IMG/VR virus record: IMGVR_UViG_2703718777_000029
Span: 1 to 16,352 of that record
DNA: 16,352 nucleotides
Source: a virus
Lineage: Duplodnaviria; Heunggongvirae; Uroviricota; Caudoviricetes
Strand: one strand, 5' to 3'
A program made the position numbers and the translations under genes. Shown here piece by piece: positions 5,408 to 10,038 of the stretch. The notes under the pieces are model-generated. The model was not told where the DNA came from. It searched no databases and was given only the letters and a program-made list of their open reading frames with translations. How positions within the stretch are numbered: the stretch's first letter is position 1; each line of letters opens with the position of its first letter.

Positions 5408-5628
5408 GCAGCACCTCCGAGATGCTTCATGTTTTTTCCGGAGCAAAAGGCTATAAGCGGCATACTGATGCGGTAATTACGGCCCAGCGGTTCACAAATC
5501 ACCTTCTGACATTCACGGTCAACCAGGCTAACACGTAGAACATGCCCTGCAGGTGTGGTGTACCACTGACCGGGGCGAGGACAACGGAAAGTCTGATTGG
5601 TAAACCGTTTGAAAATATTCCGGATCAT
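5404..5628 (-). CDS. Hypothetical small protein, 74 aa
   Basis: ATG at 5628 preceded by AAGGGGG and overlapping the Rha stop (ATGA); its stop overlaps the O-like ATG (ATGA). No recognisable domain. Confidence 0.5.
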   Translation of the reverse strand: MIRNIFKRFTNQTFRCPRPGQWYTTPAGHVLRVSLVDRECQKVICEPLGRNYRISMPLIAFCSGKNMKHLGGAA

Positions 5629-6773
5629 TTACGCCCCCTTACCTCTGAAGAGTTCAGCGACGAATGAATAAGACGGGCAAGAAATGCCGCATCGTTAATT
5701 CGGTCATACAGACTTACAGCCAGCGGTGATTCAACTTTTGCCAACATAGGATAAAGCTGCTGCAGCCAGACCTGATGAATTGATGAAATGTAGGAATAGA
5801 GAACGTTGGCGTTATGTGCAACGTCGCTCGGTACAGAGGGCTTTGAAAGCTGTTTCTCCATCTGGTTAAAGGCATTGATGTATGCCTCTTTGAACTGGGC
5901 AGCACGTTTACCAGTGAAACCCATAGCAAGAAACGCAAAGCCGTCGCGGGTTATTTGATAGCAAGGTAGTTTGCGGCCTGTGCAATCGGTGTAATCACTC
6001 ACCGAAAAATTGCGGGCAGTGAATGATGCGGAACATTCAAGCGTGCGGATCTTTTTCAGTACATCGTCATGACGTTTGGAGAAGAAGTTGGCAACAGCCA
6101 GGGATGAAGTAACAGCCTGACCATCAACGATGGCAATTTCAGGTTGAGTGAGGGTTGGGATCGTAGCCATGATGGCAGCCTCCGTTGACTGTGGAAAACT
6201 TCCACCACCGGAGCTGCGAAACTCACTGGTGGCAGACTGAACAGGGTTCGCAGTACCGGCGTCAACGGAGACCGGCGAGCCTTTCGGCTCCCCTGCCCAG
6301 CCCACCATAATTCTGGCGTGCGTGAGCGCGGACGATAAAAAAGACGCTGGCGCGTCGTATATCGCCGTTGACAATTCCGGGCTGCGACCCCCGGCACCCG
6401 CTTTATAAGGTGCCTGAACAGTGTAACGTCCCGGAATTCCAGAATCAATATGCTGGTGGTCCTTCACACTCAACAAAATCACGCCTGAATTTCCACAAAG
6501 GACTAAAGCACTCATGTGGGTAGTCTTTGCGAAGATAGATAACGCGCTGTGTTTCTGGCTCCCAACGAATAACATGAACATAAAGTCCTCTTCCGTCACG
6601 AAACCAGCGGTTAAGTTCCTGCACAACTCGCCCCCCACAGTCAGGTAAAGTTCTCTGTGGTTACTTACAGCCAGGTGATTTGGTAATCTGCATTCATGCC
6701 GTAACAACAGGTGTTCAGAGACGCTGACCACCAGCTGTTGCGACAAACGGTTATTTGCCGTTAAACTGTTCAT
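5625..6773 (-). CDS. Rha-family phage regulatory protein; Rha domain begins at the internal ATG at 6170 (181 aa), while the open frame continues upstream to 6773 (382 aa)
   Basis: MATIPTLTQPEIAIVDGQAVTSSLAVANFFSKRHDDVLKKIRTLE... is a typical Rha N-terminus, and the ATG at 6170 has GGAGG 8 nt upstream. The frame stays open for 201 further codons upstream to an ATG at 6773 that overlaps the CII-like stop (ATGA). The 6171-6773 portion has no recognised domain. Confidence 0.65.
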   Translation of the reverse strand: MNSLTANNRLSQQLVVSVSEHLLLRHECRLPNHLAVSNHRELYLTVGGELCRNLTAGFVTEEDFMFMLFVGSQKHSALSIFAKTTHMSALVLCGNSGVILLSVKDHQHIDSGIPGRYTVQAPYKAGAGGRSPELSTAIYDAPASFLSSALTHARIMVGWAGEPKGSPVSVDAGTANPVQSATSEFRSSGGGSFPQSTEAAIMATIPTLTQPEIAIVDGQAVTSSLAVANFFSKRHDDVLKKIRTLECSASFTARNFSVSDYTDCTGRKLPCYQITRDGFAFLAMGFTGKRAAQFKEAYINAFNQMEKQLSKPSVPSDVAHNANVLYSYISSIHQVWLQQLYPMLAKVESPLAVSLYDRINDAAFLARLIHSSLNSSEVRGRK

Positions 6774-7354
6774 GCGTTAGTTTCTCCACAACCAGAAGCA
6801 ATCGACGCCACGACGCCCGGAGCTGCACACTCGCGGGCGTTACTCTTTTCCGGTGCACAAAAAACACGAAATAACAGTGTTAAATGCTCCTGCCACTTCG
6901 CCATTACTTGGTAGCTGTTCTCTTCGATTTGCTCACGCTCAGCCTGGTCAATAACTCCATCAGCAGTTGCCTTGCGTAAGTACTGGGAATGCTTGCCAAT
7001 CCATTCTATTGACTCCATCAGCCGCTGATTAATGTCACCATTGTCAATGTCATCAATGACCACCAGCGGCACAAACACCCCATAACTACGACGGGCTATT
7101 GCATCTGTTACATGCCTGGTACCACTGGCATCCTGTAAAACCATGGCCCACTCAAGTGGAAAAATTTGATCCCCACCGCTACGCAGTCTGTTATGCAATT
7201 GATCTTTTGCTGGGGTGATATCATCAGATTTATACAAACCAAGAATTTCTGCTGCTTCCTCATAGCCATGAGGTAAATCAGCAATCGTTCTTCGTATTGC
7301 TGCCACCAGCCATGCTGGTTGTTTATCAACTTTCCATTCAGGTTCTTTACCCAC
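6770..7354 (-). CDS. CII-like / YdaT-family early regulator, 194 aa from a GTG start
   Basis: Second gene of the rightward early operon, directly after the Cro-like gene. GTG at 7354 is preceded by GAGGAA at 8-nt spacing. Family assignment is from position and weak sequence impression only. Confidence 0.45.
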   Translation of the reverse strand: MGKEPEWKVDKQPAWLVAAIRRTIADLPHGYEEAAEILGLYKSDDITPAKDQLHNRLRSGGDQIFPLEWAMVLQDASGTRHVTDAIARRSYGVFVPLVVIDDIDNGDINQRLMESIEWIGKHSQYLRKATADGVIDQAEREQIEENSYQVMAKWQEHLTLLFRVFCAPEKSNARECAAPGVVASIASGCGETNA

Positions 7355-7381: not shown

Positions 7382-7579
7382 TTATGCCGCAGCACTGTTA
7401 GTCTTTTGATATAAAGACACGTCAACTTTCAGTTTCCCGTTAGTAATTTTTTCTAACTGGTACGCTCGGCCTTCAGGAATAATCTCAGGCCACTCTGAAA
7501 CAGACGGATGCTTAATACCTAGGGCTTCGGCGGTTTTACAAACTCCGCCGAAATAATTAATCACGTCGGATTTCCGCAT
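7382..7579 (-). CDS. Cro-like (YdaS-type) HTH DNA-binding protein, 65 aa
   Basis: Small HTH protein (GGVCKTAEALGIKHPSVSEWPEIIPEGRAYQLEKITNGKL) divergent from the CI-like repressor; GGGAGA RBS 7 nt upstream of the ATG. Confidence 0.75.
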   Translation of the reverse strand: MRKSDVINYFGGVCKTAEALGIKHPSVSEWPEIIPEGRAYQLEKITNGKLKVDVSLYQKTNSAAA

Positions 7580-7610
7580 TTCTGTCTCCCGTTAAATTAC
7601 GTTAAGCAGA

Positions 7611-7676
7611 AATGTAGGATATCCAACATACCAATGTCAAGAATCCTACATAGTCATGTGGTAGGATTGCCTACAT
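7611..7676. promoter_or_regulatory. Right operator/promoter region: three operator sites and a PR-like promoter
   Basis: Site 1 ATGTAGGATATCCAACAT (7612-7629) is a near-palindrome. Site 2 (7634-7651) and site 3 (7659-7676) share the half-site ATCC(T/A)ACAT. On the minus strand, TTGACA (7640..7635), 18-nt spacer, TACATT (7616..7611) overlaps site 1 and would drive cro. Confidence 0.6.
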
Positions 7677-8328
7677 GATGAACATGAGTGATCGTATTCG
7701 CCAAAGGCGAAAAGAACTGAACCTGACACAACAAGCACTGGCTGATTTGACTGGTGTGAACCGTGTCACGGTTACTGGATGGGAAAAGGACGACTACCAA
7801 CCAAATGGAGCCAACCTTCAAGCCCTAGCCAACGCACTTAAATGCGATCCTCTGTGGCTTGTTAGCGGAAAAGGCTCGCCTGAACCAAAGATAAATCTAA
7901 AACCTGAAATATTCGCAGTTAAAAAAGTCCCCCTCATCTCGTGGGTTCAGGCGGGTTCATGGACAATGACGGAGCCTGGTGTCAGGAAAGAAGATGCTGA
8001 AGAGTGGGTTTATACTACCGCCCTTGTATCAGAAATGGCATTTGCACTACGGGTCCGTGGTGATTCAATGACCAATCCCCTCGGCTCACCATCGATACCA
8101 GAAGGTTCTATCGTTATCGTAGAGCCAGATATTATTGATACAGAGTGTATTAACGGAAAAATCGTTGTTGCCCATATCAATGGTGGGCAAGAAGCGACAC
8201 TCAAAAAATTTGTTGAGGACTGGCCGAACAGGTATCTCGTCCCACTAAATCCTAACTATAAAACTATTGAATGCGGTGAGAACTGCAGAATAGTTGGTCT
8301 TGTCAAACAAGTAATAATGGATTTTTGA
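7675..8328 (+). CDS. CI-like prophage repressor (XRE-family HTH plus S24 LexA-like autopeptidase domain), 217 aa
   Basis: N-terminal HTH (LNLTQQALADLTGVNRVTVTGWE); C-terminal S24 peptidase signature with GDSM serine (RVRGDSMTNP) and a downstream lysine (EATLKKF). No SD before the ATG cluster at 7675/7678/7684, so the mRNA may be leaderless as for lambda cI. Confidence 0.85.
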   Translation: MMNMSDRIRQRRKELNLTQQALADLTGVNRVTVTGWEKDDYQPNGANLQALANALKCDPLWLVSGKGSPEPKINLKPEIFAVKKVPLISWVQAGSWTMTEPGVRKEDAEEWVYTTALVSEMAFALRVRGDSMTNPLGSPSIPEGSIVIVEPDIIDTECINGKIVVAHINGGQEATLKKFVEDWPNRYLVPLNPNYKTIECGENCRIVGLVKQVIMDF

Positions 8329-8350
8329 CACATCTTCCTCACTATCGCAA

Positions 8351-8375
8351 AACCGGGGTATCCCCGGTTTTTTTA
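8351..8375 (+). terminator. Intrinsic terminator after the cI-like gene (bidirectional shape)
   Basis: AACCGGGG-tat-CCCCGGTT hairpin followed by TTTTTTT and preceded by an A-run. Confidence 0.7.
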
Positions 8376-8390
8376 TGAGCCTATCTTTTT

Positions 8391-8444
8391 ATGTAGGATA
8401 ACCAACATAAACTCTTGACACTCACATGTTGGATATCCTACATT
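8391..8444 (+). promoter_or_regulatory. Left operator/promoter region: two operator sites and a PL-like promoter
   Basis: ATGTAGGATAACCAACAT (8391-8408) and ATGTTGGATATCCTACAT (8426-8443); the latter is the exact reverse complement of right-side site 1. TTGACA (8415-8420), 18-nt spacer, TACATT (8439-8444) mirrors the PR-like promoter. Confidence 0.6.
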
Positions 8445-8602
8445 TGTTTTTAGAGTTGTGGTGAATGCGCAGGCTGATGCGCGAAAGACATTGCAGCTAT
8501 TACGGAAAAGAGCTGTTCGGCGGGGCAATTAAATGCCCGTGAGAGTCTGAAATAACCGCAAGCCGGAGATCAGCACCGATCACCACAACAGCCACTGCTT
8601 TG

Positions 8603-8650
8603 GCGGTACCAGTTTGTACACTTGCTTCCGGCTGGTACCGCTCTTTTTAC
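8603..8650 (+). terminator. Terminator-like hairpin in the early-left leader (possible attenuator or end of a short leader RNA)
   Basis: Perfect 10-bp inverted repeat GCGGTACCAG (8603-8612) / CTGGTACCGC (8632-8641) with a 19-nt loop, followed by TCTTTTTAC. The sequence CGCTCTTTTTA spanning the 3' arm resembles a boxA element. Confidence 0.4.
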
Positions 8651-8785
8651 AAAACAGAGAAGAGCATCACCGGACGACGGGCTCATAACCCAATCCACCC
8701 GGGCGGCTGCCACCGCAGGTGTTCTTCTCTGTTTTGTGGAGAAACCAACCGACCTTGCAGGGTCGATATGATGAGGAGCAGCAAA

Positions 8786-9148
8786 ATGGCTAGCGAACGC
8801 AGTACTGATGTGCAGGCATTTATCGGGGAGTTGGACGGCGGCGTATTTGAAACCAAAATCGGCGCTGTTCTCAGTGAAGTCGCTTCCGGTGTGATGAACA
8901 CGAAAACCAAAGGTAAGGTCTCGCTCAACCTGGAAATCGAACCGTTTGATGAGAACCGTGTGAAAATCAAACACAAACTCTCATATGTTCGCCCGACTAA
9001 CCGCGGGAAAATTTCCGAAGAAGACACCACCGAAACGCCGATGTATGTCAATCGCGGTGGTCGCCTGACTATTCTGCAGGAAGACCAGGGACAATTACTG
9101 ACTCTTGCCGGTGAACCTGACGGAAAACTACGCGCAGCAGGTCATTAA
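8786..9148 (+). CDS. YfdP-like early protein, 120 aa
   Basis: ATG at 8786 preceded by AGGAG at 7-nt spacing; the upstream in-frame extension to 8600 in the track has no RBS and overlaps the leader hairpin. Size and position match CPS-53 YfdP as remembered. Confidence 0.55.
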   Translation: MASERSTDVQAFIGELDGGVFETKIGAVLSEVASGVMNTKTKGKVSLNLEIEPFDENRVKIKHKLSYVRPTNRGKISEEDTTETPMYVNRGGRLTILQEDQGQLLTLAGEPDGKLRAAGH

Positions 9149-9213: not shown

Positions 9214-10038
9214 ATGTCTCAGAACTTAGACGCAACCGCAATTAATCAAATCCATGCCCTTATTTCTGCTCAGGGTGTTAATGAAATTATCAGTAAGATT
9301 GGTGCCGATGCTGTGGCATTGCCTGAGAATTTCCGCATTCATGATCTGGAAAAATTTAATTTAAATCGCTTCCGTTTCCGTGGTGCGCTTTCCACTGCCA
9401 GCATCGATGACTTTACCCGTTATTCTAAAGATCTTGCAGATGAAGGCACCCGCTGCTTTATCGATGCCGATAATATGCGTGCCGTCAGTGTGCTTAACCT
9501 GGGTACTATTGATGAACCAGGTCACGCAGATAACACCGCCACTCTCAAGCTAAAAAAGACAGCACCGTTTTCTGCTCTGTTGTCTGTTAATGGCGAGCGT
9601 AACTCCCAGAAGTCACTGGCAGAATGGATTGAAGACTGGGCCGACTACCTTGTGGGCTTTGATGCTAATGGTGACGCTATTCAGGCAACAAAAGCGGCTG
9701 CGGCTGTCCGTAAAATCACGATTGAAGCAAACCAGACCGCTGATTTTGAAGATAATGACTTCAGCGGCAAACGCTCCCTGATGGAGTCTGTCGAAGCGAA
9801 GACCAAAGATATTATGCCAGTGGCATTTGAATTTAAATGCGTTCCGTTTGAAGGTCTGAAAGAACGTCCATTTAAATTACGCCTCAGCATTATCACTGGC
9901 GATCGTCCTGTACTGGTTCTGCGCATTATTCAGCTGGAAGCAGTGCAGGAAGAAATGGCTAACGAATTTCGTGATCTGCTTGTTGAGAAATTCAAAGACA
10001 GCAAAGTAGAAACCTTTATTGGTACTTTCACCGCCTGA
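9214..10038 (+). CDS. DUF2303 (YfdQ-like) protein, 274 aa
   Basis: Length and overall character match E. coli CPS-53 YfdQ as remembered; GTGAGGA RBS 6 nt upstream of the ATG. Confidence 0.6.

Follow-up and report, generated by a model that had tools for sequence, protein, structure and literature searches.

What kind of regulatory switch lies at positions 7611 to 8444 of the E. coli lambdoid prophage DNA analysed here (16,352 nt in full, hereinafter the window), and which characterised phage system does it follow? A sequence-only reading had described the region as a lambda-style OR1-3/OL switch. With a probability of roughly 0.8, the region is the immunity (lysis/lysogeny) switch of the prophage, built on the plan of P22 immC. 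What the sequence shows is the sites and their occurrence beyond chance, the hexamers of both promoters, the families of the proteins and a layout that diverged relatives keep as a whole. The part of the earlier reading that saw an immunity switch was upheld by the gene products, the phylogenetic footprint and the conserved recognition helix, but the closer model is P22 immC and not lambda, because the operators are 18 bp long, their centre spacings are 22/25/35 bp as against 23/25/35 bp in P22, and the half-site doubles as a -10 element. Among 5426 complete E. coli genomes, 140 carried the immunity module, O157:H7 and O103 strains included, and it was found at 99.3% identity in phage Lys8385Vzw, which is deposited as a complete phage genome. 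Literature searches by sequence and by phage name found no paper describing the operators of this switch, and neither the half-site of the operator nor the RNA modules led to anything relevant. For mEp390 and Lys8385Vzw, genome descriptions were the only literature obtained, and operator work was not found.

The cI-like repressor gene (7675 to 8328, + strand; WP_000981537.1) encodes a protein of 217 amino acids, with an HTH_3 domain at its N-terminus (Pfam, 1.1e-15) and an S24 autopeptidase domain at its C-terminus (Peptidase_S24, 3.7e-25). Searched against the PDB, the protein matched lambda cI (7e-25) and the N-terminal domain of P22 c2 (4e-14). Its N-terminal domain belongs to the HTH_3 type of P22 and 434 and not to the lambda type, and its C-terminal domain is homologous to that of lambda cI (E = 1e-22), including the Ala-Gly and Ser/Lys residues; Ala93-Gly94 (cleavage site) and Ser131 and Lys177 (dyad) were invariant. 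The recognition helix, GVNRVTVTGWE, was the same in every intact relative and corresponds to GVSNVAISQWE in P22. The cI proteins of Stx phages VT2-Sakai, 2851 and 1717 were approximately 35% identical to the repressor (tblastn). Divergent to cI lies a cro-like gene (7382 to 7579, - strand), the first gene of the PR operon, which encodes 65 amino acids assigned to Pfam P22_Cro (E = 7.6e-22) and to the Cro/CI family of regulators in RefSeq. A GGAGA Shine-Dalgarno (SD) sequence was located 5-6 nt upstream of its ATG.

When the window was searched with the pattern ATGTWGGATATCCWACAT, allowing up to three mismatches, only 7612-7629 (0 mismatches), 8391-8408 (1) and 8426-8443 (0) matched; 0.01 matches were expected, and three were reached in none of 200 shuffles. 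The exact 9-mers ATGTAGGAT and ATGTTGGAT occurred six times in the 16 kb window, all inside the two operator regions. In a scan of 16335 positions with a scoring matrix built from the three strong sites alone, OR2 and OR3 being left out of training, OR3 ranked fourth and OR2 sixth. On the right side, OR1 (7612-7629; ATGTAGGATATCCAACAT) covers the PR spacer and -10 and has no mismatch to the consensus. OR3 (7659-7676; TGGTAGGATTGCCTACAT) matches at 14 of 18 positions and extends into the cI ATG by two bases. The weak OR2 (7634-7651; ATGTCAAGAATCCTACAT) matches at 13 of 18, with its right half-site alone intact and its left half, which holds the PR -35, agreeing with the half-site at 4 of 9 positions. 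All three sites between cro and cI fell within ranks 1-6. The earlier description of three sites between cro and cI and two after the terminator thus stands insofar as five sites are non-random, although OR1 is the only full match on the right side. On the left side, OL2 (8391-8408; ATGTAGGATAACCAACAT) has one mismatch and lies upstream of the PL -35, and OL1 (8426-8443; ATGTTGGATATCCTACAT), without mismatch, covers the PL spacer and -10. Sequence comparison confirmed the earlier statement that OL1 is the exact reverse complement of OR1. The operator centres are spaced 22 and 25 bp apart on the right side and 35 bp apart on the left, and OR1 and OL1 are separated by 814 bp. Neither a match within three mismatches nor a matrix hit for an OL3 was detected upstream of OL2, and the place of such a site (8349-8390) is occupied by the cI terminator and its T run. 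The missing OL3 is not disqualifying for a P22-type switch, since 933W is also without an OL3 site (PMC3317979).

A promoter scan identified PR and PL, each with 10 of 12 matches, pointing outwards from the ends of the region. PR (7611-7640, - strand) consists of a -35 TTGACA (7640-7635), an 18-nt spacer and a -10 TACATT (7616-7611), with a start predicted near 7604. PL (8415-8444, + strand) has the same -35 (8415-8420), spacer length and -10 (8439-8444), with a start predicted at 8451-8453. The mirror-image TTGACA-18-TACATT design with an operator over spacer and -10, which had been read from the sequence before, was therefore found on both strands, at 7640 to 7611 and at 8415 to 8444. The two promoter-operator units form a 40-nt inverted repeat (7603-7642 and 8413-8452) that is 83% complementary. 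The 18-nt spacer and the TACATT -10 are suboptimal for sigma-70. The intrinsic terminator of cI (8349-8376, + strand) is a 10-nt perfect inverted repeat, AAAACCGGGG-TAT-CCCCGGTTTT, followed by a T run. Its hairpin showed compensatory changes at three pairs across the five loci described below, and the T run was invariant.

Conservation was analysed in five loci, namely the window and those of mEp390, Enterobacter soli, Pantoea brenneri and Erwinia tracheiphila (the labels of the relatives include L006, L007 and L008), for which no experimental work was found in the literature. The repressors of mEp390, E. soli and P. brenneri were 61, 84 and 76% identical in amino acid sequence to that of the window, and cI of E. 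tracheiphila was frameshifted. Invariant columns of the alignment coincided with the operators and promoter hexamers, whereas the flanks diverged. The best operator matches were found at constant offsets from the cI ATG, -63/-64 for OR1 and -16 for OR3, and the OL1/OL2 pair was exactly 35 bp apart in all five loci. The OR1 18-mer was identical in L006, L007 and L008, and that of OR3 was identical in L006, L007 and mEp390 and one base off in L008. The PR hexamers and their spacing were kept in L006, L007 and L008, and in mEp390 PR reads TTGACC-18-TACTAT. TTGACA and TACATT of PL were invariant in all five loci. In mEp390, the half-sites tolerate A at position 6 (ATGTAAGAT) and the OR1-OR2 spacing is 23 bp, compared with 22 bp in the window. 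The leaders downstream of PL differ from that of the window in mEp390 and in the Enterobacter, Pantoea and Erwinia loci.

The footprint of OR2 was less uniform: its 18-mer scored in the window and L006 only (-41/-42), it was absent from the top eight matrix hits in L007 and L008, and its right half was degraded in Pantoea and Erwinia (ATCTTACCT and TTCTTACCT). The conserved bases could stem from the -35 elements of PR and PRM alone, and an invariant TCAAG block does coincide with the PR -35. We therefore weighed an arrangement of two plus two operators, in which OR2 would be no functional operator, its bases being kept as the PR -35 (TTGACA) and a PRM -35-like element, PR would be repressed through OR1 alone, and OR3 would act on PRM only. 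The poor left half of OR2 agrees with such an arrangement, but the right half is a perfect ATCCTACAT in the window (7643-7651) and in L006 and one position off in mEp390 (TTCCTACAT). Further, TC-TAC-T in this half was invariant in the five loci, although the PR -35 does not reach T-C-x-T-A-C. In P22, a bona fide OR2 occupies the equivalent position, 23 bp from OR1, and weak middle operators that are filled cooperatively are the rule in lambda and P22. On this evidence the two-plus-two arrangement is unlikely, and OR2 is retained as a candidate weak third operator on the right side.

The start of cI had been said to lack an SD sequence, which is contradicted by AGGA at 7663-7666, 8 nt upstream of the cI ATG (7675). 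The proposal of a leaderless PRM-type transcript remains plausible on a different basis, because OR3 carries the invariant extended -10 TGgTAGGAT (7659-7667, + strand). We propose that this element would set the start at about A7673-A7675; the maintenance transcript would thus probably begin at, or 1-2 nt before, the AUG. We infer PRM itself from position alone, and its -35, AAGAAT (7639-7644) in the centre of OR2, is poor. OR2 would be centred near -32 of PRM, whereas lambda OR2 is centred near -42, and with this geometry activation by the repressor from OR2 cannot be assumed.

Alternatively, maintenance transcription of cI may begin further upstream, with AGGA serving as an ordinary SD sequence and OR3 being conserved as the holder of SD and start codon rather than of a leaderless start. 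AGGA stands 8 nt from the ATG and permits ordinary SD-led translation from longer cI transcripts, the consensus promoter scan returned no + strand promoter upstream of cI, and an invariant TGGTAGGATTGCCTACATGA is compatible with the role of -10, SD or operator alike. Yet TGgTAGGAT fits the extended -10 motif (TGn plus TAnnAT) exactly, and the A of the ATG supplies a purine 7-8 nt downstream of it. In P22, the PRM -10 is annotated at the homologous position and the transcript begins 4 nt ahead of the ATG; moreover, between OR1 and OR3 there is no other conserved -10-like hexamer. An upstream start as the sole origin of the maintenance transcript appears improbable; the two modes are compatible, since cI may be translated leaderless from the PRM transcript and with an SD from that of an establishment promoter, as happens in lambda. 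A CII/C1-type establishment promoter was looked for and rejected: TTGCN6TTGC occurred at chance level (20 matches, 23 expected), and none lay on the cI-sense strand within the cro/CII-like region.

That the palindromes serve another factor (e.g., Rha/Ash or CII-like) or are relics of recombination between immunity modules is highly improbable: the right boundary of the module does fall at 8455, immediately past PL, with homology to mEp460 and Stx phages from there on, but the sites track the repressor gene in the same layout beside every cI relative while the leaders differ, are accompanied by the invariant HTH recognition helix, overlap the start codon of cI as well as the -10 or -35 of PR and PL, and share length and dyad form with the P22 c2 operator, ATTTAAGATATCTTAAAT, from which they would differ at two positions per half-site.

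As sites of the CI-like repressor, they resemble those of P22 in many respects. Both systems have 18-bp dyad operators, a P22 c2-like N-terminal domain and a cro of the P22_Cro family, with operator centres 23/25 (OR) and 35 bp (OL1-OL2) apart in P22 and an OR1-OL1 distance of 819 bp. In both, OL1 overlaps the PL -10 by 5 bp and the half-site also provides a -10 element on either strand. The PRM elements annotated in P22, a -10 TAAGAT in OR3 and a -35 AGGAAT in OR2, correspond in place to TAGGAT and AAGAAT here, and OR3 abuts the ATG in P22, while in the window its end overlaps the ATG at 7675. Several features differ. P22 has an OL3, whose place is taken by the cI terminator in the window. 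The P22 PR is TTGACT-16-GATAAT, and OR1 there covers the start site and the edge of the -10, unlike PR of the window, which is a mirror copy of PL with OR1 over spacer and -10. A TGn precedes the PRM -10 of the window, and P22 has none at this place. The P22 operator has the consensus ATTTAAGnnnnCTTAAAT and the half-site ATTTAAGAT, which is changed at two positions in the half-site of the window; the core of the recognition helix is NRVTVTG here and SNVAISQ in P22; and the repressor is only 45% identical to P22 c2 in amino acid sequence. Neither the operator consensus nor the c2 helix that define P22 immunity was thus found, and the immunity specificity would almost certainly differ from that of P22. 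Judged by these sequences, the module is filed as a relative of P22 and not as imm-P22, because half-site, helix and overall identity all differ.

Lambda shares with the window the divergent PR/PRM, with three operators that are putative here, PL operators that lie downstream of cI and are co-directional with it, and, probably, the leaderless maintenance transcript. Its operators are 17 bp long and unrelated in sequence, it has three OL sites, and OL and OR are approximately 2.4 kb apart, compared with 0.8 kb here. 933W, as described in the literature, has three right and two left operators, as proposed here, and its repressor is reported to bind non-cooperatively (PMC3317979).

The following scheme is what we infer from this arrangement; it takes in repressor binding and its cooperativity, the start site of PRM, autoregulation and what Cro would do. 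A dimer of the CI-like repressor would bind the 18-bp operators, with the consensus ATGT(A/T)GGAT-ATCC(A/T)ACAT. OR1, over the PR spacer and -10, and the weak OR2, at the PR -35, would together shut off cro and the early-right genes. OL1, over the PL spacer and -10, would silence the early-left transcript with the help of OL2, 35 bp upstream. OR3 covers the extended -10 and the cI start, and a high level of repressor would for that reason silence the maintenance transcript of cI. RecA-stimulated self-cleavage at Ala93-Gly94 would lift repression, after which Cro may bind the same sites.

Beyond the switch itself, the first element that PL would transcribe is a homologue of sRNA-17 (8454-8647, + strand) of approximately 193 nt, which runs from CGTTGTGGTGAATGCGC to GGTACCGCTCTTTT and ends in a hairpin (8603-8641) followed by UCUUUU. 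This stretch matches the northern probe of sRNA-17 and the two 'full length' primers at its ends (Table S2, PMC7719688). sRNA-17 was described from a mEp460-type prophage of E. coli K1 RS218 (PMC7719688), and mEp460 is 98.5% identical over 8454-8647. The PL start is predicted 2-4 nt upstream of a 136-nt RNA within this stretch (8455-8590), modelled with the topology of a tRNA cloverleaf. The model comprises a covarying 7-bp acceptor-like stem (NNNGGUG/CACCNNN), a D-like hairpin, a T-like hairpin of 5 bp directly adjoining the 3' strand of the acceptor-like stem, complementary loops (GCUGA/UCAGC), and a hypervariable insert of ~30-170 nt in place of the tRNA anticodon arm. The constant frame recurred with hardly a changed letter in at least 130 viral contigs, including the unrelated groups of P1-like, T1-like, Ackermannviridae and lambdoid phages. 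tRNA genes are frequent neighbours of the element, and in one case it encloses such a gene. The element gave no Rfam hit at the gathering score or at E <= 5-10, and ARAGORN found no tRNA within the window.

Several known elements were considered for the PL leader and were rejected or found unsupported. An HK022 put-type antiterminator is not supported: putL, of ~70 nt, follows PL directly and has two stem-loops (PMC9378689), a size and layout unlike those here, and HK022 was absent among the 40 matches listed, a spread sample of 153 records, in a blastn search. AgvB/AsxR-type anti-sRNAs, which are 51-60 nt long and located downstream of PR' (PMC4104026), fit neither in location nor in length. 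A known ribozyme or riboswitch had no Rfam match, and HDV-like and hammerhead topologies misfit the strand order when compared by hand. A match to rydB was limited to an 18-nt hairpin and was not significant (E = 2-6). The 'boxA-like' GTGCTCTTTCC upstream of the element in other phages reads, in L013, as the 3' acceptor strand of a tRNA-like match, itself weak (tRNA-Sec model, E = 0.56), and the ARAGORN 'tmRNA' call in L013 looks spurious. Tentatively, the element may represent an undescribed class of phage RNA that docks on a conserved host component and that, in this prophage, came directly under the control of CI when modules were exchanged at the PL start, a possibility to which we give slightly less than even weight.

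The switch is an ordinary addition to its family, with its own operator sequence on the classic P22 layout, and the general understanding of such switches is unchanged by this member. It provides a further putative three-plus-two operator layout beside 933W and adds a readable, apparently uncharacterised immunity specificity to the P22/lambda family. Operator and recognition helix, as a pair related to that of P22, offer a naturally swapped specificity with which DNA reading by P22-type repressors can be studied. In addition, the module indicates which STEC prophages would be co-immune.

In the window, the 18-mer ATGTWGGATATCCWACAT was found with three or fewer mismatches only at 7612-7629, 8391-8408, and 8426-8443 (0.01 occurrences expected by chance), and every exact copy of ATGTAGGAT or ATGTTGGAT (six in total) was located within the two control regions. 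As described by the sequence-only reading, the sites at 7612-7629 and 8426-8443 were exact reverse complements, and mirror-image TTGACA-18-TACATT promoters were present on the - strand (7640..7611) and the + strand (8415..8444); the two promoter/operator units formed a 40-nt inverted repeat. The proposed three-plus-two arrangement of operators was sustained for these three strong sites, but the remaining two were degenerate: OR3 (7659-7676) matched at 14 of 18 positions, and OR2 (7634-7651) at 13 of 18, with its right half alone intact. When scored with a matrix trained on the three strong sites only, OR3 and OR2 ranked 4th and 6th of 16,335 positions, respectively, and both fell within the 47 bp separating OR1 from the cI ATG. 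The cI start had also been described as lacking a Shine-Dalgarno sequence, which was incorrect, since AGGA (7663-7666), part of an OR3 half-site, is present 8 nt upstream of the ATG.

The 1.5 kb around the switch was 100% identical to the yjjG-adjacent prophage of E. coli O157:H7 strain NE122 and 99.3% identical to temperate phage Lys8385Vzw, and 140 of 5,426 complete E. coli genomes carried at least 80% of this region. The - strand encoded an Ash/Rha-family gene (5625-6773), a YmfL/CII-like gene (6770-7354), and cro (7382-7579; 65 aa, P22_Cro family), and the + strand encoded the repressor (7675-8328; 217 aa), yfdP (8786-9148), and yfdQ (9214-10038; DUF2303), which is followed in the RefSeq annotation of the identical prophage by yfdR and, further right, an integrase. 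In addition, Rfam matches to C4 antisense RNA (6225-6312, - strand, 78.8 bits) and isrK (6337-6413, - strand, 56.9 bits) were detected. Both lie where the Pfam "Ash" domain maps in a 382-aa ORF, which carries a Rha-family regulator annotation. These matches suggest an antirepressor control module of the P1 immI/Gifsy-1 isrK type in the PR operon, and the ORF may have been called too long at its 5' end.

For comparison, the P22 operators were re-derived from the P22 genome, consistent with the operator ranges given in the P22 GenBank entry. In P22, centre spacings were 23 and 25 bp within OR, and the OL1 and OL2 centres were 35 bp apart, versus 22, 25, and 35 bp in the window, and OR1 and OL1 were 819 and 814 bp apart, respectively. 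The window operator, ATGTAGGATATCCTACAT, shared its length and dyad form with the P22 consensus, ATTTAAGATATCTTAAAT, and would differ from it at two positions in each half-site. In both phages, the PRM -10 was the inner half-site part inside OR3 (TAAGAT in P22, TAGGAT in the window), and the PL -10 was the outer half-site part on the opposite strand (TAAAT+T and TACAT+T, respectively). The PRM -35 annotated in P22, AGGAAT, lies at the OR2 centre, where the window had AAGAAT. Unlike P22, the window lacked OL3, because the terminator takes up its place, and PR was a mirror copy of PL, so that OR1 lay over the spacer and -10 and not over the start site. A further difference from P22 was found at the left end of OR3, where TGGT replaces the operator-consensus ATGT and thereby provides the invariant TGn of an extended -10 motif (TGgTAGGAT). 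A three-plus-two precedent has been published for 933W (PMC3317979). Its specificity is new, but the switch fits the P22/lambda class in a straightforward way; literature searches by sequence and by phage name turned up no account of these operators.

The repressor gene region was compared with four diverged relatives, namely phage mEp390 and prophages in Enterobacter soli, Pantoea brenneri, and Erwinia tracheiphila. The repressor shared 84% (Enterobacter soli), 76% (Pantoea brenneri), and 61% (mEp390) amino acid identity, and the Erwinia copy was frameshifted. In all four, the best matrix matches placed OR1 at position -63/-64 and OR3 at position -16 relative to the cI ATG, and an OL1/OL2 pair with exactly 35 bp spacing lay behind a terminator; for OR2, scoring 18-mers were confined to the window and the Enterobacter soli locus (-41/-42). 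The alignment columns without change were those of the operators, TTGACA, TACATT, and the ATG, whereas the cro leader, inter-operator spacers, and post-PL leader had diverged, and compensatory changes preserved the cI terminator. The Erwinia locus (1501-2150) contained three in-frame stops in the cI homologue, with OR1, OR3, OL1, OL2, and both promoters still recognisable, and looks like a decaying prophage retaining its operators. In mEp390, the annotated cro-like start (1132-1141; ATG at 1134, 76 aa) lay upstream of the PR transcript start predicted from the -10 TACTAT (1141-1136); read from an internal ATG, the protein is 65 aa long, like the window Cro, and the annotated start is probably wrong.

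The repressor contained HTH_3 and Peptidase_S24 domains, with an intact Ala-Gly cleavage site and Ser/Lys dyad. Its N-terminal 65 residues matched the P22 c2 DNA-binding domain (E = 4e-14), and its C-terminal 130 residues the lambda cI C-terminal domain (E = 1e-22). The recognition helix, GVNRVTVTGWE (GVSNVAISQWE in P22), was unchanged across the intact relatives, while the remaining protein drifted to 61% identity. An invariant helix together with conserved sites is the pattern expected if this helix reads these operators.

From this anatomy and its conservation, which were observed directly, we infer all steps of binding and transcription. Repressor dimers on OR1 would block the PR -10 and -35, probably helped by the weak OR2, and OL1 together with OL2 would block PL. 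OR3 occupancy would cover the extended -10 and the PRM start, giving negative autoregulation. The OR2 centre lay near -32 of PRM. Since the PRM -10 ends at 7667, a start at A7673-A7675 is favoured, so the maintenance mRNA would be leaderless or nearly so; the annotated P22 RM transcript starts 4 nt before the c2 ATG. AGGA would act only in longer transcripts, e.g., establishment transcripts, a dual arrangement resembling lambda.

Homology to mEp460 and Stx phages started exactly at 8455, a few nt past the predicted PL start. The + strand at 8454-8647 matched sRNA-17 at the two full-length primers and at the northern probe (PMC7719688), and this homologue begins 2-4 nt downstream of the predicted PL start. 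sRNA-17 is a 193-nt RNA of an mEp460-type prophage in E. coli K1 RS218, mapped by RACE and northern blotting (PMC7719688).

The first 136 nt of the homologue (8455-8590, + strand) belong to a far wider RNA family. At least 120 IMG/VR contigs carried the exact 24-mer GGTGAATGCGCAGGCTGATGCGCG, and at least 130 viral contigs carried the motif, with blastn matches in P1-like, T1-like, Ackermannviridae, and other Enterobacterales phages; the motif also occurs in lambdoid phages. Members shared a constant 5' module, a hypervariable insert of ~30-170 nt, and a constant 3' module, (A/U)GCCGGAGAUCAGCACCGG. Among 70 distinct frames, the 7-bp closing stem (NNNGGUG/CACCNNN) showed strong covariation, with both sides changed in 6 to 20 sequences at four pairs, and the constant 3' hairpin (GCCGG-AGAUCAGCA-CCGGC) covaried at two pairs. 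Constant hairpin 1 (GCGCA-GGCUGA-UGCGC) had no freedom to vary, since the search pattern included it; its loop and the 3' hairpin loop are complementary along 5 bp, including one compensatory U-A. In total, 94% of cells were paired, versus 27-50% when partners were slid. The strand order matched a tRNA cloverleaf in which the insert takes the place of the anticodon arm. In 17 of 125 neighbourhoods, tRNA genes lay ~1.5-1.9 kb away or nearer, almost invariably on the same strand; at one locus with the motif (L056), a tRNA-Pro was inside the insert. No matching family was found in Rfam 15. The RydB hairpin of E. coli K-12 (rydB locus L148, 1214-1281, - strand), GCCGGAGAUAAGCGCCGG, equalled the 3' constant hairpin at 16 of 18 positions, and rydB 5' CUUAUC is complementary to its loop; this statistically weak match (E = 2-6) may be coincidental.

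The sRNA-17 homologue ended in a hairpin (8603-8641) followed by UCUUUU, ahead of yfdP. In RS218, yfdP rose ~95-fold (2^6.6) on sRNA-17 deletion (PMC7719688), and given this ending, the rise may reflect simple terminator loss. Past the terminator, a long, near-perfect leader hairpin (8646-8741, + strand; 25-nt arms, 84% complementary) was identified, along with a boxA-like CGCTCTTTTTACAA (8639-8652), and the whole 340-nt leader folded much better than its shuffled versions did (z = -5.7). Together, these features suggest regulated read-through into yfdP, and the sRNA-17 homologue would here be under CI control.
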